A stretch of 64,000 bases of DNA from Leucoraja erinacea (taxonomy: Eukaryota): the NCBI RefSeq assembly GCF_028641065.1, contig NC_073414.1, positions 1,426,001 to 1,490,000 of the forward strand, given 5' to 3'. This document shows positions 13,030 through 61,219 of the stretch, piece after piece. The position numbers were made by a program, and so were the translations under genes. The notes beneath the pieces are model-generated. The model saw nothing but the letters and a program-made list of their open reading frames with translations, was not told where the DNA came from and made no database searches. The number at the start of each line of letters is the position of its first letter. Within the stretch, counting starts at the first letter, position 1.

Positions 13030-15360
13030 CACTTAACAGTTGGAAAACATCTCTACCATGCACTGTAGATGGAATCTCTGGAGCAGCTAATATCACGGAG
13101 TTATGGGGAAAATATTATAGTACTTGATTCAACTGTGTCCAAGGTGACTTGTATCGGGTGGACAATATGGAGAATAATGACTCAATGGTGATTATGTCAC
13201 ATGAGGTGTAGCATGCCATGAACAAGCTGTCCAACAACAAAGCAAGTGGCTTGGATCATATCTCTGCTGATCATCTTAAGCATGCGAGTATGAGGATAGC
13301 TCCTCTCCTTGCTATTTGTTTCACTGGCTTTATGATTCATGGCTTGTTACCAGACTCAATGTTGTCTGTCCTGTTAGTGCCGGTCATTAAGGACAAAGCT
13401 GGTAAACTAGGCAGCCTAAATAATTACAGGCCCATAGCTTTAGCCAGCATATTGTCAAATGTTTTAGAGAGAGTTCTGCTGGAGTAAATGAGTTTGTTAA
13501 CTCCACAGATAACCAGTTTGGTTTTAAAGCTAAACATGGCACTGACTTATGCGTATATGCCCTAAAGGAGATTGTAAACAAATATAGAGGCAAAAACTCT
13601 ACAATCCTCATGTGCTTTATTGATGCTTCCAAAGCCTTAGACCGTGTTAATTACAGAAAGCTGTTTGGTAAAATGAGTCAAGGAGGGGTGCCTAAATACA
13701 TTGTTAGAATTCTGGCCTACTGGTATGCCCACCAGACTATGCAAATAAAATGGAGCAAGAGGGTATCAGCCCCATTTGGGGTTAGCAATGGTGTTAGACA
13801 AGGGGGAATTTTGTCCCCAGTCCTTTTTAATCTATATATTGATGATCTGTCTAAACAATTGAAAGCCTGCAACACTGGGTGCGTGATTGGTAATATTTTA
13901 GTGAACCATATTATGTATGCAGATGATCTTGTGGTCTTTAGTTCATCTAGCGCTGGTCTCCAGCACCTCCTTACTATATGTTCTGTGTATGGTGTGGAAC
14001 ATGACATTAAATCTAATGCTAGTAAGAGTGCTGTTATGATCTGTAGAACCAAAGAGGATAAATGTCTAAAATATCCTGATTTTAAATTGTCTGACAATAA
14101 TCTTAGTGTCTGTAATAAGGTTAAATATCTAGGGCATATTATTACAGAACAAATGACAGATGATATAACCATATAACCATATAACAATCACAGCAATTTT
14201 TTTCCCCTCAGTCCCACCTGCCTGCACTCATACCATAACCCTCCATTCCCTTCTCATCCATATGCCTATCCAATTTATTTTTAAATGATACCAATGAACC
14301 TGCCTCCACCACTTCCACTGGAAGCTCATTCCACACCGCTACCACTCTCTCAGTAAAGAAGTTCCCCCTCATATTACCCCTAAACTTCTGTCCCTTAATT
14401 CTGAAGTCATGTCCTCTTGTTTGAAACCTCCCTATTCTCAAAGGGAAAAGCTTGTCCACATCGACTCTGTCTATCCCTCTCATCATTTTAAAGACCTCTA
14501 TCAAGTCCCCCCTCAACCTTCTGCGCTCCAGAGAATAAAGACCTAACTTATTCAACCTATCTCTGTAACTGATGGTGGGATATTTATAGGCAACGACGCA
14601 TGATGTATGTACAGGCGAATATTCTCTTGCGTAAATTTGGAGCGTGTACAGATGTGGTGAAGATGTCGCTGTTTCGAGCATATTGCACATCACTCTACAC
14701 TGCGCACCTGTGGTCAAACTACGGAAAGACAAGCTTACAGAGACTAAAGGTGTCATATAATGATGCCATGAGAACACTGCTCAAGGAACCTAGATGGTGT
14801 AGTGCTAGTAATATGTTTGTGGCTGCAGGAGTCAGCACTCCTAAGTCAGCTATCCTAAGAAATCTTACGTATAAATTCATCTGCAGGATAAATGACTCTA
14901 AAAATGTAATTATTGTGGCCTTGTCAAACATAAAGTTTAGCACCACATGCTACCAATCCCAGCTGTGGAGACACTGGTATCACTGTCTCAATAGACAATA
15001 GACAATAGGTGCAGGAGTAGAGGCCATTCGGCCCTTTGAGCCAGCACCGCCATTCAATGTGATCATGGCTGATCATCCCCAATCAGTACCCCGTTCCTGC
15101 CTTCTCCCCATATCCCCTGACTCCGCTATCTTTAAGAGGAGTTTTAAGTCTCGTTGTAGGACATTGATCATTCTTTTTTATTCTGGATTTTAATTAACGT
15201 ATTGTGTTTTTAAAAAAAAATGTAATTTATAATGCTTTTATAAGTGATATACTAAGATTTTAAATGTACTTGATGGTGTTTTTATATGCAATGTATTTTA
15301 ATGTAATGTTGTCCCTTGTCTGAACCTTGAGTCCGAAAAAATTAATTAACTAATTAATGA
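13030..15360 (+). mobile_element. RTE/RTEX-like non-LTR retrotransposon, 5'-truncated and frameshifted, with nested insertions
   Basis: RT motifs KASGLD.I, NYRPIAL, QFGFK..HGT, CFIDASKA.DRV, GVRQGGILSP.LFN.YIDDL, YADDLV and KYLG. Continues at 14577-15000 after an inserted LINE piece. Confidence 0.8.
14165..14570 (-). mobile_element. HER1/CR1-type LINE 3' fragment nested in the RTE-like element
   Basis: Encodes YRDRLNKLGLYSLERRRLRGDLIEVFK...FFTERVV.VWN.LP; (ggttatat)n tail. Confidence 0.85.
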
Positions 15361-19600: not shown

Positions 19601-20959
19601 GTTAGAGTTCAAGCCCCACCACAGCTGCTGAACATCTGTCTCATCCTCCAGCTTGGAGCAGAAACGTCACCTATCCATGTTCTCCACAGATGCTGCCTGA
19701 CCCGCTGAGTTACTCCAGCACTTAATGTAGTTTTTGTAAACCAGGATCTGCAGTTGCTTGTTTCTGCATCACAAGTACCTACATGGGGCGCTACCTTATA
19801 AAGGATCATCACGGATGCCCGCTGTCTGGGCCATGTCTTGTTCTCACTGCTACTGTCGGCAGGAGGTGCAGAAGCCTCAAGTCCCACATCACCAGGTTAG
19901 AAATATAGAAACCTAGAAAACAGGTGCAAGAGGAGGCCATTTGGCCCTTCACGCCAGCATCGCCACTCGATATGATCATGGCTGATCATCCAAAATCAGT
20001 ACCCCGTTCCTGCTTTCTCCCCATATCCCTTGCTTCCGTTAGCCCTAAGAGCTAAATCTAACTCTCTCGAAAACATCGAGTGAATTGGTCTCCAGTGATG
20101 GAGATTTCCGCAGATTCTAAAACTCTCTAGGTGAAAAAGTTTTTCCTCATCTCGGTGCTAAATGGCCAGGCTCTCATTCTTAAGCTGTGTGTGACCCCAG
20201 GTTCTGGACTCCCCCAACATGGGGAACGTGTTTCCTGCAATTCCTTGTGACAATATGACACTACCCTTGACTTGAGTTGACTTGGTTCTGGCCGTTGTTC
20301 AAGAACGTCATGGTGTTGATGACATTACTTCTGTTAACTAACATTACCGGTAAGTTAGAATTGAAAAATAAATACCCATGCAAATACCTTGGTCTAGTTG
20401 ACTAGATCATTCATAATCACCTCACCACAAAGCACAGGATGAATTGAGAAAAGTGAGCAGCGCTCAGTTTCACTTTGTCAGAAAGTTAGTCTACACAGCA
20501 AACTCATTCCTTGCTAATTCAAGTGAAAGGAACTGCAAATGCTGGTTTATACCAAAGATAGACACAAAATACTGGAGTAACTCAGCGGGTCAGACACAAA
20601 AGTGCTGGAGTAACTCAGCGGGTCAGACACAAAATACTGGAGTAACTCAGCGGGTCAGGCAGCATCTCTGGAGAACATGAATAGATTAATAAAAATAATA
20701 TTTGAATTGAAAAAATAAGATTTGAAGAAGAACTATCTTTAATTGGACATTATCATATTTCAATATTATATCTTTGCACTAATTGCTGTATACTTGATCC
20801 TGTCTGTACACTGGGGAAGGCTTGATTGTAATCATATAGTCTTTTCATTGACTGGATAGCAAGCAAAGAAAATCTTTTCACTGTATCTTAGTGTGTGTGA
20901 CACTAATAATCTACAGTAAACTAAAACATGTAGGAAGGAACCGCAGATGCTGCTTGACA

Positions 20960-21860
20960 CCGAAGATAGACACAGAGTGCTGGAGTAACTCAGCGGGTCA
21001 GGCAGCATCTGTGGAGAACATGGATAGGTGACGTTTCACAGAGTGCTGGAGTAACTCAGCGGGTCAGGCAGCATCTATGGAGCTAAGGAAATAGGCAACG
21101 TTTCGGGCCGAAACCCGTAAGGGTTTCGGCCCAAAACGTTGCCTATTTCCAGAAGGATTTCGGCCCGAAACGTTGCCTATTTCCATAGCTCCATAGATGC
21201 TGCTGCACCATAACTCAGCGGGTCAGGCAGCATTTGTGGAGAACATGGATAGGTGATGTTTCACAGAGTGCTGGAGTAACTCAGCGGGTCAGGCAGCATC
21301 TGTGGAGGACATGGATAGGTGACGTTTCACAGAGTGCTGGAGTAACTCAGCGGGTCAGGCAGCATCTGTGGAGAACATGGATAGGTGACGTTTCACAGAG
21401 TGCTGGAGTAACTCAGCGGGTCAGGCAGCATCTGTGGAGAACATGGATAGGTGACGTTTCACAGAGTGCTGGAGTAACTCAGCGGGTACAGCAGCATCTA
21501 TGGAGCTAAGGAAATAGGCAACGTTTCGGGCCGAAACCCTTCCGGGTTTCGGCCCGAAACGTTGCCTATTTCCAGAAGGGTTTCGGCCCGAAACGTTGCC
21601 TATTTCCTTAGCTCCATAGATGCTGCTGCACCATAACTCAGCGGGTCAGGCAACATCTGTGGAGAACATGGATAGGTGACGTTTCACAGAGTGCATAACT
21701 CAGTGGGTCAGGCAGCATCTGTGGAGAGACATGGATAGGTGACGTTTCACAGAGTGCTGGAGTAACTCAGCGGGTCAGGCAGCATCTGTGGAGAACATGG
21801 ATAGGTGACGTTTCACAGAGTGCTGGAGTAACTCAGCGGGTCAGGCAGCATCTGTGGAGA
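20960..21860 (-). repeat. Tandem array of a 66-bp PLE terminal-repeat unit
   Basis: Unit cacagagtgctggagtaactcagcgggtcaggcagcatctgtggagaacatggataggtgacgttt repeated ~9 times, interrupted twice by the same fold-back insert. Confidence 0.9.
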
Positions 21861-24164
21861 GAAGGAATGGAAATGAAATGGAATGAAATTAAAACAGTTT
21901 TGCCACTTTCAAAGAACCATGTGGTTGGACTCTCGGTCTCACTAATGTCCTGTTTCCTTGAACAGAATCTTTTTACTCTGTCTTGCAGAATTAATGTATC
22001 ATTTATGCTTTGTGTGTAGTCTGAGTCGATGTGCCTGAGATGCTGCAGCAAGCAAGGTTTTCATTGTACCTGTATCTCACCGTACCTGTACAGGTGACGA
22101 TAAACTCCACCTGACCTAGTCACTACCATTTACTGATCACCCTCAACACCCCAAACTTGTCAGGGTTAAATTATGAAGCCCTCAAGCCATGCTGCCTCTC
22201 CCTAACCTGTCCCAATAACAGGTGCTTAGCTGCAGAAAATGTTGAACCATTAAGTTTGTAGATACAGCATGGAAACAGGCCCTTCGGCCCGCTGAGCCCA
22301 TGCCAACCATCGATCACCCGTTCACACTAGTTCTATGTTAGCCCACTCCTTCATCCACTCCCTACACACCAGAGGGGGCAATTTGCAGAGGGACCATTTC
22401 CCTACAAACCCGCACATCTTTGGAGTGTGGGATGAAACCGGAGCACCCGGAGGAAACCCACGTGGTCACAGGAAGAACGTGCAAACACCACACAGACAGA
22501 AGCTGAGGTCAGGATGGAACCTGGATCTTTGGCGCTGTGAGGCAGAGGCTCTACCCGCTAAACCACCACCCTGCCGGTCTGGCAAGAATATTGGCAATTT
22601 CTGGTGTTAATTTTGCCAGTAAGTAGCTTGCCAATTTCTGAGTGCACATGGCTGTTAATATATCATTGAGTTCAGTGAAACTGTCCCTGTTAAAGTGGAA
22701 GTTCATTTCAGTTTATCCACACTTGCAAACTCACTGAAGTCTGTTTCTCGGAAGAAATGATTCATAACCGTTCCAACTCAGCCAGCAACGGTTCAGAAGT
22801 GCTCATTCATTGTGTGAAGACTGTCGTGAGGCATTTTGTCTGTGAAACTCACCAGTCCCACCCCAGTCACTCCCTCCTCCCCTCTCTCATCCAGCAAGAG
22901 GTACAGAAGTGTGAAAACAAACGCACACACCTCCAGATTCAGGGACAGTTTCTTCCCGGCTGTTATCAGGCAACTGAACCATCCCACCACAACCAGAGAG
23001 CAGTCCTGAACTCCCATCTACCTCATAGGAGCTTTAATCAGACTTTATCTTACACTAAACATTATTCCCTGTAGACTGTATCTTCTTCTTGTGTATGGCG
23101 TGCATAGCCTAAAGTTGTAGGACAACTTGTTCTATTTCATCATATTTGATTGTGCATGCCAGGTTGATTGCATTCGTCGAAACTGGGTGGACCACGTGGA
23201 GGTTGCAATCTCCCACCCTAGGCCCCCCTCTATCCTGTATAAGTACACTGTGGATGGCTTGATTGTAAACATACAAACATAGACAATAGGTGCAGGAGTA
23301 GGCCATTCAACCCTTCGAGCCAGCACCGCCATTCAATATGATCATGGCTGATAATCCACAATCTGTACCCCGTTCCTGCTTTTTCCCCCATATCCCCTGA
23401 TTCCGTTAGCCCCAAAAGCTAAATCTAACTCTCTCTTGAAAACATCCAGTGAATCGGCCTCCACTGCCTTCTGTGGCAGAGAGTTCCACAGATTGGTGCA
23501 AAACAAAATCATGAATAATCTTATAGAAACTTACAAAATTCTTAAGGGGTTGGACAGGCTAGATGCAGGAAGATTGTTCCCGATGTTGGGGAAGTCCAGA
23601 ACTAGGGGTAACAGTTTAAGGATAAGGGGGAAATCTTTTAGGACCGAGATGAGAAATACATTTTTCACACAGAGAGTGGTGAATCTGTGGAATTCTCTGC
23701 CGCAAAAGGTAGTTGAGGCCACAGTTCATTGGCTATATTTAATATGTGGCCCTTGTGGCTAAAGGGATCAGGGGGTATGGAGAGAAGGCAGGGATGGGAT
23801 ACTGAGTTGGATGATCAGCCATGATCATATTGAATGGCGGTGCAGGCTCGAAGGGCTGAATGGCCTCTACTCCTGCACCTATTTTCTATGTTCCGATGTT
23901 TCCGCTGACTGGTTAGCATGCAACATAAAGCGTTTTACTGCACCTCGCTGTATGTGTAAATAAGTGTGTGTTCAGGGGTGTCTTTGAAGAACTATCCCTG
24001 CCCCAATAGCACAGGGTGGTACAACTCCACTCTCCCAAAAAATATGTTTTCCTCTTCCTGTAACGTTGGTCTCAGTATGGACTCAGTGGGCCGAAGGGCC
24101 TGGTTCCATGCTGTACACTACAGTATCTCTAAACTAAATTAAACACTAAGAGAATGGGGAATTT

Positions 24165-24460
24165 TTTTCTCATCCTGGGAGCAGATGCGGCGTAGACGGA
24201 GGAATTGGGAGCAGGGGATGGAGTCCTTACAGGAAGCAGGATGGGAGGAAGTGTAGTCCAGATAGCCATGGGAGTCAGTGGGTTTATAGTGGATGTCAGT
24301 CAGTAGTCTATCATCTGCGGTGGAGATAGTGAGGTCAAAAAATGGTAGGGAAGTGTCAGAAATGGTCATGGTGTATGTTTTTCAGTGCTGGATGGAAGTT
24401 AGTGGTGAAATGGATGAAGTTAGTGAGTTGTGTGTTTTCTCATCCTGGGTCCAGATGAGG
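24165..24460 (-). mobile_element. Penelope-like element reverse transcriptase (C-terminal/thumb) fragment
   Basis: Encodes LPFFDL.I......TDIHYKPTDSHGYLDY.SSHP.SCK.SIP.SQFLRLRRICS, characteristic of PLE RTs. Confidence 0.85.
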
Positions 24461-24472
24461 AGGAGACAGAGT

Positions 24473-24500
24473 CTGAAGAAGGGTCTCGACCCGAAACGTT
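24473..24500 (+). ncRNA. Minimal type I hammerhead ribozyme motif (PLE-associated)
   Basis: CTGAAGA-A-GGGT-CTCG-ACCC-GAAAC-GTT: core boxes, stem II hairpin and palindromic AACGTT stem III. Confidence 0.6.
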
Positions 24501-24564
24501 GCCTATTTCCTTCGCTCCATAGATGCTGCCTCACCCGCTGAGTTTCTCCAGCACTTTTATCTTA

Positions 24565-24840
24565 TGCCCCTGTCCCACTTAGGAAACCTGAACGGAAACC
24601 TCTGGAGACTTTGCGCCCCACCCAAGGTTTCCGTGAGGTTCCCGGAGGTTTTTGTCAGTCTCCCTACCTGCTTCCACTACCTGCAACCTCCGGCAACCAC
24701 CTGCAACCTCCGGGAACCACCTGCAACCTCCGGCAACCACCTGCAACCTCCGGCAACCTCTGGGAACCGCACGGAAACCTTGGGTGGGGAGCAAAGTCTC
24801 CAGAGGTTTCCGTTCAGGTTTCCTAAGTGGGACAGGGGCA
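24565..24840. mobile_element. PIF/Harbinger-type MITE
   Basis: ~70-bp near-perfect TIRs (tgcccctgtcccacttaggaaacc...), TTA duplication at 24562-24564 and 24841-24843, and an internal 20-bp tandem cctgcaacctccggcaacca. Confidence 0.85.
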
Positions 24841-25300
24841 TTACTTAGAGATTGGAATGACTTTTGTTCAATATTGCCACCTACAGGAAGGGGGCAGCAC
24901 AGAAGGACACATACATGGCAATGAAGACCACATCAATGTATTAGAAAACAAGGTCACAGACCCATAGAACATCACTAACTCAGAGTACTTTCAATTGTGG
25001 CCACTGTGGCAGATTCTGACGTTCTAGGGTGAGTTATTGAATCATCGAGTCAAGTGCAGGTACAATGTTGTCTCACTAAAGGTGGAGGTCCCATAGCAGG
25101 AGCGGCCATGTGGCAGGGCGGGAGACTGGAAGTATCCTGAGCTAATTCTGCTACCACCATCATCTATTGCAACAAGTGATGGCTCCCACTGATTGTCACC
25201 GAAATGGCACTGGTTTAGATGAGGCATCTTGGTTGGGATGGAGTAGTTGGGCCGAAGGGCCTGTTTCCATGCTGTATCACTCTACGATCTTATAACTTGT

Positions 25301-25600: not shown

Positions 25601-25604
25601 AGTG

Positions 25605-25925
25605 ATAGACACAAAAAGCTGGAGTAACTCAGCGTGTTAGGCAGGCAGCATCTCTGGAGAACATTGAACATTGACTTCTCTAACTTCAAGTAGCTCTTGC
25701 TTTCCCTCTCTCTCCATCCGCTTTCCCAGTTCTCCCACCAGTCTTACTGTCTCCGACTACATTCTATCCATGTCCCGCCCACTCCCCTGACATCAGTCTA
25801 AAGAAGGGTCTCAACCCAAAATGTCACCCATTCCTTCTCTCCAGAGATGCTGCCTGTCCCGCTGAGTTACTCCAGCTTTTTGTGTCTATCTTCGGTTTAA
25901 ACCAGCATCTGCAGTTCCTTCCTAA
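25605..25925 (+). mobile_element. Short PLE derivative with an inverted 5' terminal repeat
   Basis: Minus-oriented terminal repeat (25605-25660) followed by a plus-oriented endonuclease end, UTR and terminal repeat. Confidence 0.75.
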
Positions 25926-28271
25926 ACTTTATAATATATTTGTTCTCTGGTTGTTCCCCGACTGATGTCTGCTTGGTTTGTCCTGGCTCATCTCCCAGAG
26001 ATATCCTTCAAGAAATTGTTTGAGAAGGAACTGCAGATGCTGGAAAAATGAAGGTAGACAAAAATGCTGGAGAATCCTTCAAGGAATCTCTTTGGATCGG
26101 AGAGATTCTAGCCAGTGTCCCTTAGATATAACGCCACAAACTCCTCCCCCTCTTTGGCCTTTATGTTGGGACTGGTATCTGGGGACGGAAGAGAAAGGTT
26201 TCCCACTTCAGAGAAGTCTCTCATGGTTCGTTCTACAAATCCAATCAACTTCACTCAGCCAGCCCCAACCCACTGTCAAGAAAAGAGATTTATTTCTGTG
26301 TCGTTACTTACGTTCAGTTGTGCCTTTTAGTCACTGTGGGTTTTCCCCTAAAGTGTGTTAAAACTCCACGGTTCCAATCTCGGCAAGCCTTCCCAGCAAG
26401 TATCGTTGATGTATCAAATGCTGAAAATAGCAGAATTCATTACTCAGTCTTTCCCTGCCACTTGCCCATGCTGACTTGTGATGCAATGCCGGTGGCAAGA
26501 GACAGTCACATCAGTGCAACACTAATGATCACAAACCCCACACCACGGAGTTTGCACGTTCTCCCGGGACCTGCGTGGGTTTTCTCCGGGTGCTCCGGTT
26601 TCCTCCCACACTCCCCAAGACGTACAGGTTTGTAGATTAATATAACCACATAACCATATAACAATTACAGCACGGAAACAGGCCATCTCGGCCCTACAAG
26701 TCCGTGCCGAACAACTTTTTATCCCTTAGTTCCACCTGCCTGCACTCATACCATAACCCTCCATTCCCTTCTCATCCATATGCCTATCCAATTTATTTTT
26801 AAATGATACCAATGAACCTGCCTCCACCACTTCCACTGGAAGCTCAACTGGAATATAACTTTCTACACTTACAATAGACAATAGGTGCAGGAGTAGAGGC
26901 CATTCGGCCCTTCGACCCAGCACCGCCATTCAATGTGATCATGGCTGATCATCCCCAATCAGTACCCCGTTCCTGCCTTCTCCCCATATCCCCTGACTCC
27001 GCTATCTTTAGGAGCCCTATCTAGCTCTCTCTTGAACGCTTTCAGAGAACCTGCCTCCACCGCCCTCTGAGGCAGAGAATTCCACAGATTCACAACTCCC
27101 TGGCTGATCTTCAATCAAGCATTAGAATCTCAACACTCTTTTAAACCTCCGTTCCTACAGATACATAGTGAAGGGCTCGATTATAACCATGTTCTCATAG
27201 ACAATAGGTGCAGGAGGAGGCCATTCGGCCCTTCGAGCCAGCACACCCATTCAATGTGATCATGGCTGACCATCCCCAATCAGTACCCCATTCCTGCCTT
27301 CCCCCCATATCCCCTGACTCCGCTATCTTTAAGAGCCCTATCTAGCTCTCTCTTGAACGCATCCAGAGAACCGGCTTCCACCGGCCTCTGAGGCAGAGAA
27401 TTCCACAGACTCACCACTCTCTGTGTTACCTTTTTTTAAACTTCCCCACCCTGGCTACAAACTCTGTACAGACAGCGCCCATAGTCAGGATGGAACCCGG
27501 GTCTCTGGCGCTGTGAGGCGCTATCGTGCTCCAGTTTTCTCCCACATTCCAAAGACGTGCAGTTTTATAGGTGAATTGACCTCAGTAATTTGACCTTGGG
27601 TTTTTGGGTGTGAACGGGTGGAGAACCTGTCCCACTTACGCAACTTTTTCGGCGACTGCCGGCACCCGTCATAGGTTGCAGCAGGTCTCCGAAACTTTTC
27701 AACTTGTTGAAAATCCAGCAGTGTTTTTCCGGAGCTCCCGCAACAACAGCTTTGTCCGCTGGACTGGAGGGCGGCAGATTCAACCGCGGGACGCATCCAG
27801 TTCGGATTCAGCCGCGGGTCTTGCTCACCGTTACCCAGCGGGATCACAACATCGCAGGCCTGGATCGCCTCAGCACAGAGGGATAGCAAGGAGGGAAGAG
27901 ACAATGACTTTGGGACTTTAAACTGTGTTGAGTGTTTGTATTGTATTGTATATCTTTATTGTCATTTCCTGAGTATTCACATACCCAGAGGAAACAAAAA
28001 AACGTTTCTCAACCAGTGTCCATTCAGTGTGCATTAAAAATAAATAGAAATAAAAATACATATATCATGAACAAATTTAACACTCTACTAAACATTCAAC
28101 AGGCATTCCGATCGGCAGCGGCACAACAGTGGCTCTGCTGCAGTGTGTCCAGGTTGGGGGTTTGTGCGCGATACTTGGCAGGGGGCAAAGTCCGTTTATC
28201 AGTCTTATAGCCTGCGGGAAGAAGCTGAGGAGCATCCTGCTGGTTTTGCAGCTAATGCTCCTGTACCTCTT

Positions 28272-30500: not shown

Positions 30501-31084
30501 GGTCCTGAGCTACTACCTACCTCTGGAGACCCTCAGACTAACTGACTGAAGAAGGGTCCCGGCCCGAAACGTTGCCTATTCCTTCTCTCCATAGATGCTG
30601 CCTCACTCGCTAAGTTTCTCCAGCATTTTTGTCTACCTCAGACTATCTTTGATCAGTCTTTACTGGACGATATCTTGCCTTAAACATTATTCCCTTAGCA
30701 TGTATCTGTACACTGTGGACGGCTCGATTGTAATCATATATTGTCTTTCCGCTGACTGGATAGCATGCAGCAAAAGCTTTTCACTGTACCTCGGTACACG
30801 TGACAATGAGATACAGTGCGGAAACAGGCCCTTCGGCCCACCGAGTCCGCGCTGACAAGCAATTACCCTGTATACTAGCACTCTGCTACACACTGGAGAA
30901 AATGTACAATTTTACCAATTCCAATTAACCTACAAACCCGCAAGTCTATGGAGTGTGGGAGGAAACCGGAGCACCCAGAGAAAACCCACGCAGATCACGG
31001 GGAGAACGTGCAAACTCTGTACAGACAGCACCCGTAGTCAGGATCGAAACTGCCCCACTGAACTAATCTAAACTCTGAGAGCCA

Positions 31085-31465
31085 GGATAGACACAAAATG
31101 CCGGAGTAACTCAGCGGGACAGGCAGCATCTCTGGAGAGAAGGAATGGGTGACGTTTTGGGTTGAGACCCTTCTTCAGACTGACGTCAGGGGAGTGGGCG
31201 GGACAAGGATAGAATGTAGTCGGAGACAGTAAGACTAGTGGGAGAACTGGGAAGGAGGAGGGGATGGAGAGAGAGGGAAAGCAGGGGCTACTTGAAGTTA
31301 GAGATGTCAATGTTCATACCCCTGGGGTGTAAACTGCCCAGGTGAAATATGAGGTGCTGTTCCTCCAATTTGCGCTGGGCCTCACTCTGACAATGGAGGA
31401 GGCCCAGGACAGAAAGGTCAGTGTGGGAATGGGAGGGGGAGTTGAAATGCTGAGCAACCGAGAGC
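31085..31465 (-). mobile_element. Penelope-like element 3' fragment
   Basis: Endonuclease C-terminus (LEEQHLIFHLGSL.P.GMNID), pyrimidine-rich UTR and terminal repeat. Similar pieces at ~32900-33510, 40905-41130 and 50500-51065. Confidence 0.8.
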
Positions 31466-31780
31466 CAGCATAGCCCTCAATGGGCTGAATGGCCTCCTTG
31501 TTCGTGGGGGGCGAGGTAGAGAGTGGGGTGTTAGTTATAAACGGAGGCTGCAAATGCACGCTGCCGCACCAACGTTACAACAACAGGAAGTGCTTGTTCT
31601 GAGGTGAAGCAGGAGTGGTGAAAGTTGTGCTGAGATATTGTCTACCTGCCCCGATCCACAAAGTGTGTGTGTGTGCAGACAAGTGACTGCTCATGCCCAG
31701 ACAGATTATAATCTAAATTAAACTCAGTAGATAGAACACAGAACAGTACAGTACATGAACAGGCCCTTCAGCCTGCAATC

Positions 31781-32382: not shown

Positions 32383-33559
32383 CCTTTTATTGTCATTCAG
32401 ACCGAAGTCTGAACGAAATCCTCCTGCGCTCCATGGATTAGAGACCCAGCCTACTCAACCTCTCCCTGTAGCTCACACCCTCTAGTCCTGGCAACATCCT
32501 CGTGAATCTTCTCTGAACCCTTTCAAGCTTGATAAAACATCTTTCCTATAACACGGTGCCCAGAACGGAACACAATACTCTAACTGCGGTCTCACCAACG
32601 TCTTATGCAACTGCAACGTGACCTCCCAACGTCTATACTCATTTCACGACGAGGTGAACCTCTGACCTGGTTCTCCACAGATGCTAATCTGATTCGTTTT
32701 TACCCACCCAATGTTGCTCACTAACGACAAAATGAATTACAATAACAGCTCGTATGGTTTATGTTCGATTTTACCACGCAACCACGGAAGAACCGCATGG
32801 CCACACGACAAGCAAAGAGACACGAGAGAAGTATGAAATATTCACGATTTGTCACCTCCCTCCATGAAACTGTGACAGGGATCGATAACGTTTGCTGAAG
32901 ATAGACACAGAATGCTGGAGTAACTCAGCGGGACCGGCAGCATCTCTGGAGAGAAGGAAATAGGCGACGTTTCTGGTCCAAACCCTTCTTCAGACAGAGT
33001 CAGGGGAGAGGGAAAGGAGACATCTAGACGGTGATGCAGAGAGATAATGAACAATGAATGAAAGAAATTAAACAAAAGTAACAATGAAATAAAGGAAAGA
33101 GGCCATTGTTAGCTGTGGGCGAGGTAAAAACAGGTAACAGACAATGAGACTCAACAAGATAACTTTGAAGGTAGACAAAAATGCTGGAGAAACTCAGCGG
33201 GTGCAGCAGCATTTATGGAGCGAAGGAAATAGGCGACGTTTCGGGCCGAAACCCTGAAGGAAATAGGCAACGTTTCGGGCCGAAATCCTTCTTCAGACTT
33301 TGAACATGGTACACCTTGGGTGGGGGAGGGATGGAGAAGGAGGGGTGATTCAAGGATTACTTGAAGTTAGAGGAATCAATATTCAGGACTCTCAGTCTGA
33401 AGAAGGGTCTCGACCCTACTCCTTTTCTCCAGAGATGCTGACTGTCCCGCTGAATTACTCCAACTTTTTGTGTCTATCTTCAGTTTAAACCAGCATCTGC
33501 AGTTCCTTCCTACACAAGAAAATGTTCTGCATTTCTTTAGGACCTTAGTGTGCAGGGTT

Positions 33560-35062: not shown

Positions 35063-36091
35063 TCAGTTCCCCGGCAACACATCACACCTGTTGCCCAATG
35101 GGATGCCGGTAAAGTCGGGCTTGAAGTGTTTGCTGAAGACGCCCAGGCAAGGGAAGAGGTCCCGGAACGCATCCCAGAAGGTCCTTATCCTGAAGACGTA
35201 GACTATGGGGTTGACCACCGAGTTGGCGTGGGACAAGATGATGGTGGCGAGCATGAGAGGGGTCGGGATGTGGTAATGTGGGCAGAACAGCTCGATGCAG
35301 TTGAGGATGTGGATAGGGATCCAACTGAGGGTGAAGCAGAAAAGAAGAATGAAGAGGGAGGTGGCCGTCCGCAGTTCCTTCCGGACAACCCTCCGGCGCT
35401 TCTCCTCCACGCTGATGTTGACGTGTCTCTCGGCTATTCTCCTGATCTGCCTGCGGGCCTCGGTGAAGATCTTGGCGTAGATGACAAACATGGCCAGCAG
35501 TGGGAGCAGCATGCAGAGGATGAAGTTGAAGTAGACCATGTAGGTCTGGTCAATGATGTTGTAGAAGATGCACGTCTCGTTGGGCGTAGCCGCCTTGCGC
35601 CAACCCATCAGCGGCACCAGGCCGATGACCACCGCCAGCGCCCAGGAGCCAAAGATGACCATGGCCGCGGACCTGTTGGTCACCAGCTGCTGGTAGCGGA
35701 AGGGAGCTAGCACGGCGATGTACCGCTCCACCGCCACGGCAAACAGCCCGAAGATGGAGGCTTGGGTCAGCACCAACATGCTGCACAACATGAGGACACA
35801 CAGGTAGTACCTGCACACCGGGAGGCCGAGATCAGACAGTAGGGCACAGGGAATTGCAATAGCGCCCACCAACATGTCCGCAACAGCCAACGACACCAGG
35901 AAGAAATTAGTCACTGTCCTCAACTTTCGTCTCCTGACCACGACAAAACAGATAAAAATGTTCCCCAGGACGGCAAAGAAAGCTGTGAAGACTTCCACGA
36001 AAAAATACCCTGCCTTGATGTGGAGAAAATCAGTGGTACAATTGATTTTACCGTGGGACAAATTGGATGGGACATCAACAAACACATCCAT
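35063..36091 (-). CDS. Adenosine-receptor-like GPCR with intronless CDS (candidate adorb/A2c-type, not clearly A1/A2A/A2B/A3)
   Basis: 342-aa ORF with perfect Kozak ccaccATGg. Adenosine-receptor motifs: TM1 Y...E, TNFFLVSLAVADMLVG..AIP, VLTQASIF, IGLVPLMGW, YMVYFNF, WIPIHILNC, LSHANSVVNPIVY.FRI. Acceptor tttttctcag ends at 36235. Confidence 0.9.
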   Translation of the reverse strand: MDVFVDVPSNLSHGKINCTTDFLHIKAGYFFVEVFTAFFAVLGNIFICFVVVRRRKLRTVTNFFLVSLAVADMLVGAIAIPCALLSDLGLPVCRYYLCVLMLCSMLVLTQASIFGLFAVAVERYIAVLAPFRYQQLVTNRSAAMVIFGSWALAVVIGLVPLMGWRKAATPNETCIFYNIIDQTYMVYFNFILCMLLPLLAMFVIYAKIFTEARRQIRRIAERHVNISVEEKRRRVVRKELRTATSLFILLFCFTLSWIPIHILNCIELFCPHYHIPTPLMLATIILSHANSVVNPIVYVFRIRTFWDAFRDLFPCLGVFSKHFKPDFTGIPLGNRCDVLPGN

Positions 36092-37627
36092 GGTGGAACG
36101 TCAACACACAAACTTCTTACTCCTTCTTATCTCATCTTCTTCTTCGTCCAATTCTTCATCGTTTCCACTGCTCGCAGTTCTTCATCCCCTCTCTCCACCG
36201 TGGATCAATCCTCAACCAGTGGATCCAGCCCCACCTGAGAAAAATGATAACAAAACAATTCAATCTTCAATCGGTTTCTAACCCTATCGCTAATCCCACC
36301 ATCCAATTCCTCCCGATCCCAGGCCGAGAAACAAATATCAACAAGCCACACCTTTCTAGGTTTGTAGGAAGGAACTGCAGATGCTGGTTTAAACCGAAGG
36401 AAGACACAAAATGCTGGAGTGACTCAGCGGGACAGGCAGCATCTCTGGAGAGAAGGAATGGGTGACGTTTCGGGTCGAGACCCTTCGTTAGAGGAAAAGG
36501 ACAGAGAGGAAACGGGTTGAGACTTCACAGTTTCAGGCACCAAACGGACTCAAGCAAACAGAGATAGACCCAAAAAACTGAGTTACTCCAGCACTCTGTG
36601 AAACGTCACCTATCCATGTTCTCCACAGATGCTGCCTGACCCCCTGAGTTACTCCAGCACTCTGTGTCTATCTGCGGTATAAACCAGCATCTGCTGTTCC
36701 TTGTTTCTCCAATGTTCATACCATTGGGTTTTAAGCTGCTCAAGTGGAATAAGTAGGAAGAAACTGCAGAGTTGGGTGTGGCCTCACTCTGGCCATGGAG
36801 GAGGTCCAGAACACAATATCAATACCCATTGTAAGGCTGTGTTTGCATCTGTGATCATCATGCATTAAAAAATATCATTTTCCTGAGATTGTGCTGTCAG
36901 TATAACTTGTGCTGTCAAGAAGGAACTGCAGGTGCTGGTTTACACTGAAGACAGACACAGAGTGCTGGAGTAACTCAGCGGGTCAGGCAGCATCTGTGGA
37001 GAACATGGATAGGTGACGTTTCACAGCGTGCTGGAGTAACTCAGTGGGTCAGGCAGAATCTGTGGAGAACATGGATAGGTGACGTTTCACAGAGTGCTGG
37101 AGTAACTCAGCGGGTCAGGCAGCATCTGTGGAGAGAAGGCATGGTTGAAGGTTGGATGGGAAGAGAAGGTTTCAACATACTGCTGAGTTGCTCCAGCATT
37201 TTGTGTCTGTCTTCAGTAGAATGTATAGCTGACCTCAATGAACTTCAGCATGCTAATCCTTTATGTAAACATCTTCTTCTTGCATATGACGTGCAACTTG
37301 TAGGACACCTTGTTCTATTTGATCTTGTTTGTTTGTGCACGTCACGTTGATGTCAGGGTGGACCACGCAATCTCCCACCTAAAGTCTAAATAATTCACGT
37401 CAAGACAACTTCCACTTTTGGGACCGAGGTAGATGCAACTCATCGCAGAGCTCAAGTAAGAGCGGGGAGTGGAAGCAAGGGAAACCACACGTTCCACAGC
37501 CGTGACGCAGGCTGGACAGGAACTACAGATGCTGGCTGAGACCAAAGGTAAACAAACGTTAAGGTAGACAAAAGTGCTGGAGAAACTCAGCGGGTGCAGC
37601 AGCATCTATGGGGTGAAGGAAATAGGC

Positions 37628-37655
37628 AACGTTTCGGGCCGAAACCCTTCTTCAG
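37628..37655 (-). ncRNA. Minimal type I hammerhead ribozyme motif (PLE-associated)
   Basis: Minus strand reads CTGAAGA-A-GGGT-TTCG-GCCC-GAAAC-GTT; identical copy at 50711-50738. Confidence 0.55.
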
Positions 37656-37737
37656 ACTATACGCCACATGCTGGCCGAGATCAGGTTGAGTTGAGCCTCA
37701 GCACCTTTACCTGCCTCAGCAAAAAAATATCACTTAC

Positions 37738-40700: not shown

Positions 40701-42010
40701 AGGAGTAGAGGCCATTCGGCCCTTCGAGCCAGCACCGCCATTCAATGTGATCATGGCCTGATCATCCCCAATCAGTACCCCGTTCCTGCCTTCTCCCCAT
40801 ATCCCCTGGCTCCGCTATCTTTAAGAGCCCTATCTAGCTCTCTCTTGAAAGTATCCAGAGAGAACCTGCCTCCACCGCCCTCTGAGGCAGAGAATTCCAG
40901 AGAATTCCACAGATATAGAACAAATGAACGAAAGATATGCAAAAAAAGTAGTGATGATTAAGGAAACAGGCCGTTGTTAGCTGTTCGCCAGGTGAGAACG
41001 GGAAGCTGGCGTGACTCGGGTGGAGGAGGGATAGAGAGGGAGGGAATGCAGGGGTTGGATAAATCAATTTCCATACGACTGGGCTGTAAGCTGGCCAAGT
41101 GAAATATGAGATGGTGTTCGTCCAATTTGCGTGTTTTGTTTGTGTGTTGTTACGGGAGGGTTTTAATCAGTAATGATGGACCCATTTACATCAAGCCTGG
41201 TGCTGTTGACACAGCTGGCTCCAGCCTCGACTTCCACGCTCAACGCTTCCCCTTCGATAAACATTGCGGCCGCCACGGGTAGCCAGACGCCTGCCTGTTG
41301 TCCGTGTAAATCCTGGACTTCCTGGCCTGCCACATCACACAGACAAAGCCCAGACCAGCAAAATCTCAGTCTCCAATGTCTGTGCCCAACATAATGCAGA
41401 TCATGTTTAATTTAGTTGAGGAAGGAACTGCAGATGCTGGTTTACACCGAAGACAGGCACAAAATGCTGGAGTAACTCAGCGGGACAGGCAGCATCTGTG
41501 GAGCGAAGGATAGACAAAAATGCTGGAGAAACTAGGGGTTGGGCAGGCTAGATGCAGGAAGATTGTTCCCGATGTTGGGGAAGTCCAGAACAAGGGGCCA
41601 CACAGTTTAAGGATAAGGGGGAAATCTTTTAGGACTGAGATGAGGAAAACGTTTTTCACACAGAGAGTGGCGAATCTGTGGAATTCTCTGCCACAGAAGG
41701 TAGTTGAGGCCACACAGTTCATTGGCTATATTTAAGAGGGAGTTAGATGTGGCCCTTGTGGCTAAAGGGATCAGGGGGTATGGAGAGAAGGCAGGGATCG
41801 GTTACTGAGTTGGATGATCAGCCATGATCATATTGAATGGCGAATGGTGCAGGCTCGAAGGGCCGAATGGCCTCTACTCCTGCACCTATTTTCTATGTAT
41901 GTTTCTGTGTATGTTTCTAAATTCAGCGGGACAGGCAGCATCTATGGAGAGAAGGAATGGGTGACGTTTCCAATCGAGACCCTTCTTCAGACTCTGAATT
42001 CTTAAGGAGT

Positions 42011-42038
42011 CTGAAGAAGGGTCTCGACCCGAAACGTC
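42011..42038 (+). ncRNA. Minimal type I hammerhead ribozyme motif (PLE-associated)
   Basis: CTGAAGA-A-GGGT-CTCG-ACCC-GAAAC-GTC. Confidence 0.6.
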
Positions 42039-43471
42039 ACCCATTCCTTCTCTCCAGAGATGCTGCCTGTCCCGCTGAGTTACTCCATCATTTTGTGTCT
42101 ATTTTTGGTTTAAACCAGCACCTGCAGTTCCTTCCTACACACAAACAAAAAATGTGTTCATGCATTTGGAGTTATTTGCCTGGATGTTTAGTTTAGAGAT
42201 ACGGCGTAGTAACAGGCCCTTCGGCCCATCGAGTCCGTGCCGACCAGCGATCCCCGCACATTAACACCATCCTACACACACTAGGGACAATGTATAATTT
42301 TACCCAAGCCAATTAACCTACAAACCTGTAAGTCTTTAAATTATTTTTTAAAGTAGGAACTGCAGATGCTGGAAAATCGAAGGTAGACAAAAGTGCTGGA
42401 GAAACTCAGCGGGTGCAGCAGCATCTATGGAGCGAAGGAAATAGGCAACGTTTCGGGACGAAACCCAAAGGAAATAGGCAACGTTTCACCCGCTGAGTTT
42501 CTCCAGCACTTTTGTCTACCTCCAGTCTTTAGAAACATACAAACATAGAAAATAGGTGCAGGAGTAGGCCATTCCGCCCTTCGAGCCTGCACCGCCATTC
42601 AATATGATCATGGCTGATCATCCAACTCAGTATCCTGTACCTGTTGGATGATCAGCCATGTGGCAGAGAATTCCCAGGATTCAGTCATATAGAGAGAGGG
42701 AGGGAGAGAGGGGGCTCAGTATTCTCTCCATACCCCCTGATCCCTTTAGCCACAAGGGCCACAAGGGCTAACTCCCTCTTAAATATAGCCAATGAACTGT
42801 GGCCTCAACTACATTCTGTGGCAGAGAATTCCACAGATTCACCACTCTCTGTGTGAAAAAATGTTTTTCTCATCTCGATCCTAAAAGATTTCCCCCTTAT
42901 CCTTAAACTGTGACCCCTTGTTCTGGACTTCCCCAACATTGGGAACAATCTTCCTGCATATTAAACTAATCTCCTCTGCCAGCATGTGATCTATATCGCT
43001 CCGTTCTCTGCTTGAGGGCAAACCCTCTCCACAATTTAATAGAGTCTAGAATCTGGACATTGCAATTGCCGACAGCGCTGGTAAAAAATGGTCTTTGCCT
43101 CATCATCATCTTTGGGCTGCAGTGTTTATGTCTAAAGCAACATTAGAATTTGCATAAAGAGGATAGGAAAAATGCAATTGATCTGATTTGCAAAACCATA
43201 CACAATGTCCACATGGACAAAACAAAGCCCTCTGAAACTGTCAGAGAAAAAAATGAATATCTTTTATCCAAACAGCTTTGACTATGTTTTTTTTGCATAA
43301 GGCAAATCACTCCACACGTGTACTTAAATGCACTTAACCCTGGGGGACAGGTTGCATTTGGAGAGAGAGAGTTGCTCTTTGATATCTGGACAGTGTCTGG
43401 TGTTTTGGGAACTCTTGGCTGTTGGCTGTGGTTTCTGCTGCAAGGGACCAGCCGCTGTCCACTTCAGCACC

Positions 43472-43565
43472 ATGCCCAGGGCATTCCTGGTCAAACGGCG
43501 TGCGTGTGTGGGCCGTGACTGGGGCCTGGTGTGTGATCATCATCGCGGGGATTTCTACATTCCTG
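43472..43565 (+). CDS. OVOL3: OVO-like zinc finger transcription factor, exon 1 (SNAG domain)
   Basis: Encodes MPRAFLVKRRACVGRDWGLVCDHHRGDFYIP (SNAG motif plus the OVOL W...D..RGD.YIP motif); Kozak caccATG; donor G|gtaagt, phase 1. Confidence 0.85.
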
Positions 43566-44474
43566 GTAAGTTCTGTTTAGAGTGCAACCTCAAACCTCAC
43601 CCTGGCTCAGGGGGGGATGGGAGGGGGGTGAGAGAGAGAGGGGGGGTGAAAGAGAGGGGGGAGAGAGATATAGAAACATAGAAAATATGTGCAGGAGTAG
43701 AGGCCATTCGGCCCATCGAGCCTGCACCGCCATTCAATATGATCGTGGCTGATCATCCAACTCAGTATCCTGTACCTGCCTTCTCTCTATACCCCCTGAT
43801 CCCTTTAGCCACAAGGGCCACATCTAACTCCCTCTTAAATATAGCCAATGAACTGTGTGGCCTCAACTACCTTCTGTGGCAGAGAATTCCACAGATTCAC
43901 CACTCTCTGTGTAAAAAATGTTTTTCTCATTTCGGTCCTAAAAGATTTCCCCCTTATCCTTAAACTGTGTGACCCCTTTTCTGGACTTCCCCAACATCAG
44001 GAACAATGAGTCTGAAGAAGTGTTTCGGCCCTAAGGAAATAGGTAACGTTTCGGGTCGAAACCCTTCCGGGTTTCGGCCCGAAACGTTGCCTATTTCCTT
44101 CGCTCCACATAGATGCTGCTGCACCCGCTGGACTTCCCCAACATCGGGAACAATCTTCCTGCATCTAGCCTGTCCAACCCCTTAAGAAGTTTGTAAGTTT
44201 CTATAAGATCCCTCCCTCAATCTTCTAAATTCTAGCGAGTTCAAGCCGAGTCTATCCAGTCTTTCTTCATGTGAAAGTCCTGACATCCCAGGATTCAGTC
44301 AGATAGAGAGAGGGAGGGAGAGAGGGGGCTTAAGAGTGGGTGGGAGACTGAGAGGGTGTGAGGGGGAGAAAGAGGGAGAGAGAGGGGGTTGAGAGAGGAG
44401 GGACATAAGCCAGTTGTGAACTTGGATGGAAGTAAGGGGAGAGATTGGAAGGAAGTTAGAAATCGAGAAGTATC

Positions 44475-44855
44475 TCAGATTCAGATTCAGATTCAATTTT
44501 AATTGTCATTGTCAGTGTACAGTACAGAGACAACGAAATGCATTTAGCATCTCCCTGGAAGAGCGACATAGCAAACGATTTGAATAAATAATAATAAGTG
44601 TCCAGGGGGGGGGGGGGGGGGTGATTGGCAGTCACCGAGGTACGTTGTTGAGGTAGAGTGACAGCCGCCGGAAAGAAGCTGTTCCTGGACCTGCTGGTTC
44701 GGCAACGGAGAGACCTGTAGCGCCTCCCGGATGGTAGGAGGGTAAACAGTCCATGGTTGGGGTGAGAGCAGTCCTTGGCGATGCTGAGCGCCCTCCGCAG
44801 ACAACGCTTGCTTTGGACAGACTCAATGGAGGGGAGCGTGGAATCGGTGATGCGT
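44475..44855 (-). mobile_element. Rex1/Babar-type LINE 3' end
   Basis: Encodes RCLRRA.SI.KD.SHP.HGLF.LLPSGRRYRS...RSRNSFFP; (tctgaa)n tail. Confidence 0.8.
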
Positions 44856-46100
44856 TCTATCAGATAAAGTGCTGGAGGAAGCTGCAGGGAAGGCAGCATC
44901 TGTGGGGGGAGTGGACAGACCACCTTTCAGGAGAGGAACCTTCTTGAATCTGAGGAAGGGTCCCGATCCAAAACACCACCCATCCGCTCCTCCAAGGATG
45001 CTGCCTGACCCACCTGCACTTTGTGTTTTGTTCAGCATGGCAGCATCTGCAGTTAATTGTGTCTGAGGGACTATTAGCTCAGTGGTGAATATTAAAGACC
45101 TCAGGGTAAGTGGCACTCACCAGTCAGTTATCAACAGCAACTCTTTTAGGCTTAGATTGTGTACGAGGTACAGGGAAAAGTATAGATAGACACAAAATGC
45201 TGGAGTAACTCAGCGGGACAGGCAGCATCTCCGGAGAGAAGGAATGGGTGACATTTCGGGTCGAGACCCTTCTTCAAACTGGTTAGGGATGATATAGTGT
45301 GGGAGAACTCTCGTTGGAGAGAGAACTTCTACAAAGTAGACATACGTTGAGGAGATTTGGCAGTGGAGCAGACAAAATGTGTAGGAAGGAACTGCAGATG
45401 CAGGTTTATATCGAAGATAGACTCAAAGTGCTGGAGTAACTCAGCGGGACAGGCAGCATCTCTGGAGAGAAGGGATGGGTGACGTTTCTGGTCGAGACCC
45501 TTCTTCAGACTGGTTTGGGGCAAGGGAAACGCTGTTATCAGGCAAATGAACGATCTTCTCATCAGCTAGAGAGCGGTCTGACTTTCCATCTATCTCATTG
45601 GAAACGTTTAAACTATCTGTAATCGGACTTCAATGATATAAAGTCATACAAGAGTCAGTCATACATCTTGGAAACAGGCCCTTTGGCCCAACTTGCCCAC
45701 ACCGGCCAGCTACATTAGTCCCACCTGCCTGCGTTTGGTCCATATCCCTCTAAACCCATCCTATCCAATGTACCTGTCTGAATTTTTCTTAAACAAGAGT
45801 GGGATAATCTTGACACTAAATGTTGTATTCTGTATCATGTATATGTACACTTTGGACGGTTTGATTGTAATCATGTATTGTCTTTCCGCTGACTGGTTAG
45901 CAGACAAACTGAAGCCTTTTACTGTACACAGGACAACAATAAGCAAATTGTATTATGCTGAAAGGAGCAGCAGATGCTGGTTTACACTGAATATAGACAC
46001 CGCTGAGTTACTCCGGCATTTGTGTCTATTTTCAGTGTAAACAGCATCTGCAGTTCCTTCCTGCACAAGTGCTATAAATACCTGTTAATTGTACCTACAG

Positions 46101-46258
46101 AACGGACAGGTGGATATATTGTGCAACATTTGCCGGAACAGGATGCAGCGATTAATCTAGAGGGGAAATCCCAAAATGGGAGAGCAAACCTGCTTGATGC
46201 AACAGTCCATGATGGGCTAACCCACTTGGAAAAACCACCCGCGATTCACACAGCCCAG
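46101..46258 (+). CDS. OVOL3: OVO-like gene, exon 2 (linker)
   Basis: ctacag| acceptor and CAG|gtacaa donor; 158 nt open reading whose phase 1 start and phase 0 end join exons 1 and 3 in frame. No conserved motif, so less certain. Confidence 0.65.
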
Positions 46259-46509
46259 GTACAATTTTAGGAGTTACATTTTGAGTGGCCTTCCACAACC
46301 ATCACTTCGATATCAATTGGCGAAAAAAACAAAAATGAATTACAAATATTTGTTGAGTTGCATTGAGGGCCCCTCAGAAGTCAGCGTTCAAACTCACTTA
46401 GAACATTGAAGATAGACTCAAAAAGCTGGAGTAACATAGCCCCCCTTCTGGCTGTCAGGTGAGAGAGAGCAGCGTGCAGAAGTGTGCAGAACTGGGATCT
46501 TTTCATTGG

Positions 46510-47075
46510 AGATAGACACAAGAAGCTGGAGTAACTCAGCGGGACAGGCAGCATCTCTGGAGAGAAGGAATGGGTGACGTTTCGGGTCGAGATTAGGGAT
46601 AGGGGGAAACGAGAGATACAGACGATGATGTAGAGAGATAAAGAATGAACGATTTGCAAATAAAGTAACAATGAGAAAGGAAACGGGCTGTTGTTAACTG
46701 TTTGCTGGGTGAGAACGAGAAGCTGGTGTGACTTGGGTGGGGGAGGGATGGAGAGAGAGGGAATGCCGGGGTTACCTGAAGTTGGAGAAATCAATATTCA
46801 TACCACTGGGGTGTAAGCTGCCCAAGCGAAATATGAGATGCTGGTCCTCCAATTTGCGTTTGGCCTCACTCTGACAATGGAGGAGATTGAGGACAGAGAG
46901 GTCAGTGTGGGAATGGGAAGGTGAATTAAAGTGTTTGGCAACCGGGAGATCAGGTAGGTCCAGGTGGGCTGAGTGAAGGTGTTCAGCGAAACGATGGCCC
47001 AGTCTATGTTTGGTCTCGTCGATGTATAAGAGTCCACATCCTGAACACCGGATACAGTAGATGAGGTTGGAGGAG
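46510..47075 (-). mobile_element. Penelope-like element 3' part: GIY-YIG endonuclease (46772-47074) plus 3' terminal repeat
   Basis: Hand translation (absent from the ORF track): SSNLIYCIRCSGCGLLYIDETKHRLGHRFAEH...PVAKHFN..SHS..DLSV......E..LIFRLGSLHPSGMNIDF*. Confidence 0.85.
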
Positions 47076-47913: not shown

Positions 47914-48123
<210 letters not shown>

Positions 48124-48349
48124 TAGGGACACTGGCTAGCAGTCCATCCGGCGAAGGGCCACTCCTTGTTACAACAACCAACATTTATGCAGTGTCTTCA
48201 AGTGTAACAAAGCTCTCAATAAGAATGGAGGCACAAGAGGAGTTAATGTTAGCGTTTATTTCAAGAGGGTTAGAATACAAACACAGGGAGTTTACAATGG
48301 TGTCTTCATTTATGAAGAATTAATTTATTATATTTCACGGGTCTATTTT

Positions 48350-48990: not shown

Positions 48991-49076
48991 TTTCCGTGCT
49001 GTATCTCTAAACTACACGTAGGAAGTAATGAAATTGCACCAGGGTTCAGACAGGCTCTTTGCCTCTGTTTGTTTGA

Positions 49077-49367
<291 letters not shown>

Positions 49368-61218: not shown

Positions 61219-61219
61219 C

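Follow-up and report, generated by a model that had tools for sequence, protein, structure and literature searches.

Why does a hammerhead ribozyme motif recur every few kilobases along this part of the Leucoraja erinacea genome, and do the copies that carry it still act as ribozymes? The question was addressed in a window of 64,000 nucleotides (the whole stretch of DNA analysed, in whose coordinates all positions are given), which the sequence-only reading had interpreted as seeded by a self-cleaving, retrozyme-like derivative of Penelope-like elements (PLEs). Minimal hammerheads dispersed as single copies have been described in the pseudo-LTRs (pLTRs) of metazoan PLEs (Cervera and de la Pena 2014, PMC4209133), and both points are restated in a review (PMC6765202); the kind has been known since 2014, and the motif itself is not news. 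Taken together, our results make it probable that the repeat is the 3′ end of a PLE pLTR with a minimal hammerhead and that its short copies are likely inert run-off cDNAs.

The repeat was, as had been proposed, the most abundant short repeat of the window, with a self-match depth of ~50 versus no more than 24 for other dispersed families. It comprised 78 BLAST pieces totalling 5,915 bases, and the most frequent short repeat of this skate window (9.6% of non-N sequence) is now identified as PLE ends. Three sequence types were distinguished and named A, B and C after their 3′ parts. The motif was present in all nine places listed in the sequence-only reading (24473, 30546, 42011, 50979 and 54445 on the plus strand; 37628-37655, 50711-50738, 33269-33296 and 61559-61586 on the minus strand). 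A loose core pattern (CTGANGA-N5-25-GAAA) occurred 19 times in the window versus 3.73 expected, a count that none of 100 shuffles reached; a 27-nt fuzzy pattern gave 31 matches versus none in 20 shuffles, and a structural descriptor (core, stem II of at least 4 bp and a 2-bp stem III) gave 8 versus a mean of 0.02 over 200 shuffles. An Rfam scan, which had been suggested as a check, returned no hammerhead among 127 matches up to E 10. In viral contigs, the motif pattern scan gave 0 matches and the protein scan none among 21 candidates.

The copy that was originally flagged lies next to a piece of PLE reverse transcriptase (RT):

24470-24562 (+): flagged copy, made up of AGT, a minimal hammerhead and the 3′ part without the long tail
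24166-24375 (-): PLE RT thumb fragment facing the flagged copy in head-to-head orientation; matches a skate protein at 84% and P0007 at 77% (E 5e-28)

Within the flagged copy, C3 falls at 24473, stem II at 24481-24492 and the cleavage base N17 at 24500; a stem II of subfamily A is combined with a 3′ part of subfamily B. Similarity of the RT thumb fragment likely extends to ~24445. Copies of a 15-nt direct repeat (24153-24168 and 24433-24447) lie on either side of this fragment and overlap its coding end; the fragment may therefore have been inserted on its own by microhomology priming. Directly behind the flagged copy, a 278-bp element (24564-24841; single in the window) carries inverted ends of 87 bp that are 97% alike and, between them, a 10/20-bp tandem repeat; its TTA-like flanks we take to be of Harbinger type, and it looks like a MITE.

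Several longer copies retain parts of the element from which the repeat derives:

31086-31491 (-): 5′-truncated PLE with endonuclease C-terminus, stop, ~110-nt UTR, hammerhead (G12A) and short tail
46505-47110 (-): PLE GIY-YIG endonuclease domain and pLTR, hammerhead minus its 5′ half, in intron 1 of an OVO-like gene
25665-25927 (+): whole pLTR with endonuclease end, UTR, mutated hammerhead and long tail
50600-51064 (+): endonuclease end and pLTR, split by a short copy in inverse orientation; the hammerhead at 50979 is intact
50639-50738 (-): short subfamily B copy inside the preceding pLTR, with a 12-15-bp target-site duplication
32896-33385 (-): pLTR with a hammerhead at 32993 (one stem II pair broken)

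The PLE origin that had been proposed was confirmed: the repeat occurs downstream of GIY-YIG endonuclease ends, and next to the flagged copy lies a piece of PLE RT in inverse orientation. The repeat was found behind all three endonuclease ends that had been named, with G12A in the copy at 31291, loss of CUGA and half of stem II in that at 46772, and a second copy inserted between end and pLTR at ~50600. The order of endonuclease C-terminus, stop, UTR (~110 nt) and hammerhead is unbroken at 31491-31086 (-) and, apart from the deleted 5′ half of the motif, at 47110-46505 (-); it recurs, interrupted, at 50600-51064, 25665-25927 (head-to-head with a short copy at 25604-25667) and 33385-32896 (where a subfamily B copy, flanked by an 8-bp duplication, occupies 33167-33296). 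That the repeat is the 3′ end of PLE pLTRs carrying a minimal hammerhead motif is, in our estimation, nearly certain, and subfamily A is the end of the PLE itself.

The closest named relatives of the transposon pieces in the window are from skate. The RT and endonuclease fragments, which are separate pieces in the window, both match P0012 and P0028, proteins that carry both domains; Pfam gave no match for the 112-aa endonuclease piece itself. Neptune PLEs have a C-terminal GIY-YIG endonuclease, and a CX2-5CxxC linker is typical of Neptune and Nematis (PMC8557442). Such a linker occurs in the skate and shark relatives P0002, P0003, P0012 and P0028, in a region lying outside the window fragments, and the skate element appears Neptune-like by this linker of its closest relatives. 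The window contains no full-length PLE, the parent being known here from fragments. A junction between a PLE end and a LINE-like RT occurs twice (2944-3086 (+) and 46434-46575 (-), 96% alike), as a composite repeat or a local duplication, and LINE-type RT frames at 13424-15001 (+; RVT_1, E 4e-28) are broken by another repeat.

The remaining motif-bearing pieces are mostly short:

41920-42140 (head-to-head, no single strand): pair of short subfamily A copies, that at 42011 (+) intact and with a long tail
30546-30635 (+): short copy of subfamily B that lacks stem I, flanked by a 13-bp duplication with 1 mismatch
37561-37658 (-): short copy of subfamily B in which both core and stem II are intact
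54442-54536 (+): short subfamily A copy, C11.1U
51948-52005 (-): short subfamily A copy, C11.1U, 3′ end cut, absent from the sequence-only reading
61457-61589 (-): full-size short copy of subfamily B that has the long tail, a 13-bp duplication and U-U at 10.4-11.4

The suggestion that the motif also lies inside introns applies to copies within intron 1 (43568-47916) of one gene; none of the eight intact copies lies in this intron.

43472-49364 (+): OVO-like zinc-finger gene with three exons, 43472-43567, 47917-48120 and 49077-49364

Over 62 aa, the zinc-finger exon shows 100% identity to an OVO-like protein of Leucoraja erinacea. Exon 1 (MPRAFLVK...) matches ovo-like 3 of rays and sharks and is absent from the matching skate protein P0038, the N-terminus of which instead matches repeat-like DNA at 47806 and 41176; this suggests a misannotated start. 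The window also holds two single-frame rhodopsin-family GPCR genes at 9936-11024 (-) and 35063-36100 (-) (Pfam 7tm_1, E 2e-50 and 7e-52), presumably a proton-sensing-type and an adenosine-type receptor when judged by eye, and a 36-bp minisatellite of ~55 copies (58839-60724), closely followed by GC-rich, exon-like sequence that includes an alanine run (61200-61430).

Among the 25 copies that reach C3, the core was intact in 13, and core and full stem II were intact in eight, in which the minimal type I hammerhead of the sequence-only reading (core CUGANGA / GAAA / NUH plus stem II) is whole. The extra base noted between A9 and G10.1 was indeed A in 24 of 25 copies, the 10.1-11.1 pair was G-C in 20/25, and the palindromic 15.2-16.2 pair was C-G in 17/22. 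The description of the nine listed copies as intact or near-intact stood with regard to the motif, but a stem II pair is broken at 33269-33296 and 61559-61586; the copy at 54445 has G-U at the conserved 10.1-11.1 pair. A stem I of about 2 bp had been noted, and this length was found in seven of the nine, stem I being absent at 30546 and 50711-50738. In the eight intact copies it did not exceed 2 bp, no longer stem I register common to the repeat family was found, and extra pairing at 24462-24515 draws on the host flank. A reading as type III, based on TGAC(G)TC upstream, was rejected: stem I would have no space, and only 31178 has the G.

No two-sided change was seen among the 25 window copies, so the covariation that had been proposed as a check did not appear at this scale; subfamilies differ in the window by one-sided U-A to U-G changes at 10.4-11.4 and 2.1-1.1. 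Together with the lack of an Rfam match, this is what could be said for an accidental likeness to hammerheads. Related PLEs from other animals speak against it. Two of these loci (L001 and L002) were fetched by pattern and the others (L003-L008) by protein. The motif lies ~100-130 nt after the endonuclease in all five protein-found loci that include the endonuclease end (L003, L004, L006 and L007, which form one family with U4C, and L008). Two-sided changes at 10.4-11.4 and 2.2-1.2 were present in L003/L008, a cross-family comparison from which L001 and L002 were excluded because the pattern that found them fixes stem II. The same core thus stands at the same place in PLEs with 42-50% protein likeness and with compensatory stem changes, and all four published hallmarks of minimal hammerheads are present; the probability of an accident is negligible. 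Conservation across families with two-sided changes implies that selection acts, or acted, on the motif in parent elements. The animal PLEs L003-L008 were located in contigs of two bacterial metagenome-assembled genomes and are most likely host DNA; L007 also holds a second PLE family (1838-1871), whose hammerhead likewise stands behind a TATA box and has a stem II of 6 bp, an inserted U and CAUG as a palindromic stem III.

Inserted skate copies showed a different pattern from that of the parent elements. Non-CpG mismatches affected 8/198 positions in the core (4.0%), 7/147 in stems II and III and 42/1004 downstream (4.2%; p = 1.0), as counted in 21 of 23 rows of alignment A1 after leaving out two rearranged or old copies, and these similar rates indicate that inserted copies decay neutrally. 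When five intact copies were folded in four contexts, the pairing probability was at most 0.015 for stem I and mostly below 0.25 for stem II, and a rival helix was predicted in which GAAGAAGGG pairs with bases after the cut. A simple co-fold of two monomers did not yield the hammerhead dimer. The label 'self-cleaving' therefore appears doubtful, the hammerhead fold of the monomer being disfavoured and the copies decaying neutrally, and the accompanying caution that activity was unproven was right. The scattered short pieces are likely decaying and inactive.

The term 'retrozyme-like' raises a further possibility, namely an active retrozyme in which tandem hammerhead repeats are cut, circularise as RNA and reinsert. 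Tandem arrays do exist in the family:

21211-21860 (-): 66-bp units in tandem, confined to the 3′ part from GAAAC onward and free of CUGA, mixed with stem II fold-back junctions
36956-37134 (-): 66-bp tandem array, 3′ part only

One chondrichthyan genome is reported to hold retrozymes, and the repeat is contained in public runs guessed to be RNA. The 66-bp arrays, however, comprise only sequence from GAAAC onward, without CUGA or stem II, and the window has no two consecutive units with a complete hammerhead. Since retrozymes are defined by tandem units each with a whole hammerhead, the family, as represented in this window, does not belong to them. Intact copies are single, the nearest same-strand tandem neighbours lying at least 6 kb apart and nearer ones being on opposite strands; the ends of copies do not fall at the cleavage site, unlike those expected from circles. 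The 2-bp stem I with its low predicted pairing probability and the failure of 8/9 tested Xenopus dimers to cleave point the same way, and we consider an active retrozyme very improbable. Palindromic fold-back junctions of subfamily B, centred in stem II (-19..-23) and mixed with type C 66-bp arrays, were observed at 20935-21870, 44033-44130 and 6438-6665; Rfam scores them, below threshold, as mir-722-like hairpins.

The ends of the copies, counted from the cleavage base N17 as 0, were far from random. On the 3′ side, 35 of 78 pieces ended at +58..+72 (some of these being tandem units) and 23 at +95..+108, with none at +73..+94, which gives clusters ~64 and ~102 nt after the cleavage site, ~38 nt apart. 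The two 3′ end classes are the optional 30-40-bp PLE tail, a tail that has been tied to two internal reverse-transcription starts (PMC11167929). On the 5′ side, 17/25 copies started no more than 7 nt from C3, three within 10-13 nt, and five ran into the pLTR; three gapped long copies (32993, 45508 and 50979), the length of which ungapped extension underestimates, were classed by hand. The rate at which hand-picked copies stop was 8.5% per base near the core versus 0.55% at +8..+45. In 6/21 copies the target-site duplication was clear; it measured 8-26 bp and its end lay 0-4 nt from C3, and two of these six copies sit inside older pLTRs; AGT or CTG is shared with the target in some copies, blurring the 5′ end.

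The same boundaries recurred in 351,406 and 301,665 matching contigs from two large public runs (X1 and X6), which are only guessed to be RNA and carry no expression or RNA-end information. At least 988 and at least 1,173 loose contig ends were placed at 25801, with a consensus of AGTCTG and nothing shared before it; as the position is forced by reference mismatch, the consensus letters alone are informative. Loose 3′ ends at 25892/3 and 25924 agree with the end clusters of the window. Insertions and inversion junctions also recur at GAAYATTG, ~25 nt before the endonuclease stop (50635-50750, 33384, 25659-25675 and 36710), as if the endonuclease preferred its own ORF-pLTR junction.

We judge the chance that the short copies are inert run-off cDNAs, reaching from an internal RT start to the 5′ end of the RNA, to be even or slightly better. 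In long copies the motif is placed after the endonuclease stop; the two observed 3′ clusters would match the two internal starts described in the literature, and the majority of 5′ ends precede the core by 0-7 nt. Transcription would begin at the A of YCAGTC, 3 nt ahead of the core, and from such a start priming at the tail of the 5′ pLTR would give run-off products of 95-135 nt and priming at the 3′ pLTR longer, randomly cut copies. Duplications in 6/21 copies point to endonuclease-primed insertion, while the fact that only this number is clear counts against the proposal. Copies then decay neutrally once inserted, and only the hammerhead of the parent element would cleave, as a dimer or helped by the element's protein. 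Published minimal hammerheads cleave weakly and as dimers only (PMC4209133), and the PLE hammerhead of Anolis needs the element protein and is dispensable for insertion in vitro (PMC11167929). If the short copies are run-off products, this would account for the single minimal hammerheads scattered by the thousand in animal genomes.

Promoter-like signals are compatible with a start at this point in part of the material. YCAGTC precedes the core, its A being the common start, in 4/5 long skate pLTRs and resembles the initiator consensus. A TATAWA box (chance of ~0.015 per 12-nt window) lies 34-41 nt before C3 in 3/4 related PLE families with upstream sequence. L001 has its TATA box 31 nt before the A of TCAGTC, ~31 nt being the usual spacing from TATA to start, and L008 has TTTAAA only, without TATAWA. 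None of the five skate pLTRs has a canonical TATA box; TATC at -33/-34 is present in three and missing from the other two. TATA and initiator in a pLTR are known from rotifer PLEs (PMC3846280), and our search, mostly outside the subscription literature, found no publication that links a PLE hammerhead with a TATA box or transcription start. The same rotifer work argues that the PLE template is possibly antisense, which counts against run-off synthesis. Penelope of D. virilis starts ~120 nt upstream and has an intron ending at helix I (PMC2377424, PMC4209133), so a start just before the hammerhead is not universal, and the skate CAG before the core could alternatively be a splice acceptor.

The sharp 5′ end might accordingly arise in another way, either by RT stalling or template switching at the hammerhead or by processing of the RNA, with the CAG before UCUGA acting as a 3′ splice site. 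Fold-back junctions clustered within stem II (-19..-23) favour stalling or switching; splicing is favoured by the pyrimidine-rich UTR, CTRAC-like motifs and CAG before the core, by GT after the endonuclease stop in 4/5 pLTRs and by the D. virilis intron. Spliced copies, in which the endonuclease end is joined directly to UCUGA, were nevertheless absent from the window, and L003 and L008 have no AG before the core. A stalled RT should stop where it meets a helix, at the 3′ foot, and not beyond the motif, and the hammerhead helices are only weakly populated in predicted folds. We regard this pair of explanations as rather unlikely.

A separate question, raised by the non-autonomous derivative of the sequence-only reading, is whether subfamily B, perhaps with part of A, forms a SINE-like non-autonomous element of ~135 nt with its own masters, using PLE protein in trans. 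All eight B copies start at the core edge versus 9/17 A copies (Fisher p = 0.026, a comparison chosen post hoc), none is attached to a pLTR or endonuclease within the window, and B copies hold five of the six clear duplications. Yet the same sharp start is seen in A copies, although A is joined to the endonuclease, and the absence of a full-length parent for B cannot be established from one window; a promoter situated upstream of the start would, moreover, be missing from short copies. An independent element of this sort seems unlikely to us, and run-off synthesis from the PLE remains the preferred reading.

In its strongest form, run-off synthesis would mean that the skate PLE transcript starts 3 nt before the hammerhead, that strong-stop-like inserts map RNA 5′ ends and that 5′ starts at +1..+7 are a footprint of germ-line cleavage, a tentative proposition that we would not expect to hold in full. 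The cluster at +1..+7, immediately after the predicted cut, consists of eight hand-picked copies at ~5x background (binomial p 7e-5, chosen post hoc); a duplication accompanies only one of these, and its junction contains shared letters. The +1 start of 2944 and the short form at 33394 look like deletions between two ACCC words, and 49771 is a fold-back, so all three were rejected as signs of cleavage. No RNA reads end at the cut site in Anolis (PMC11167929), and the parts of the literature examined gave no demonstration of germ-line hammerhead cleavage in vivo for any PLE. If the short copies are run-off products, whether PLE hammerheads cut RNA in cells becomes testable from genome sequence, through insertion starts at the cleavage site in a copy-rich genome.

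Our search, with the subscription literature and Repbase mostly outside it, found no publication on retrotransposon hammerheads of cartilaginous fish, and the accessible parts of PMC4209133 gave no mention of skates or of a sharp 5′ boundary, although such a boundary may already be known elsewhere. The skate motif shares with the minimal hammerheads of that paper the type I topology, the absence of a stem III loop, the palindromic 15.2-16.2 pair, the extra base between 9 and 10.1 and the G10.1-C11.1 pair, as well as a position in the pLTR, mostly single dispersed copies 'probably related to truncated PLEs' and pairs on opposite strands. Its stem II of 4 bp and stem I of 2 bp are shorter than those of Schistosoma (7-8 and 4-5), helix I of D. 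virilis having 2 bp (PMC4209133), and its density is very high in comparison, at 25 motif-bearing copies in 64 kb.

Non-LTR retrozymes (PMC7229834; bioRxiv 10.64898/2026.07.22.740005) resemble the skate repeat in their type I hammerhead, PLE pLTR ancestry and lack of coding capacity; the skate repeat differs from them in having no tandem whole-hammerhead units, a minimal instead of a canonical motif and no evidence of circles. PAc, the Poseidon PLE of Anolis (Frangieh et al. 2024, PMC11167929), likewise has two adjacent 3′ ends downstream of the hammerhead and inserts at its own ORF-pLTR junction near an ATT motif, as does the skate copy at 50639-50738. Its ORF begins in stem II, whereas no ATG-led frame starts in the hammerhead in the skate window, and PAc is a Poseidon element while that of skate appears Neptune-like by its linker and is known from sequence alone. 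With the Neptune clade (PMC8557442) the skate copies share 5′ truncation, inverted head-to-head arrangement and a 30-40-bp tail.
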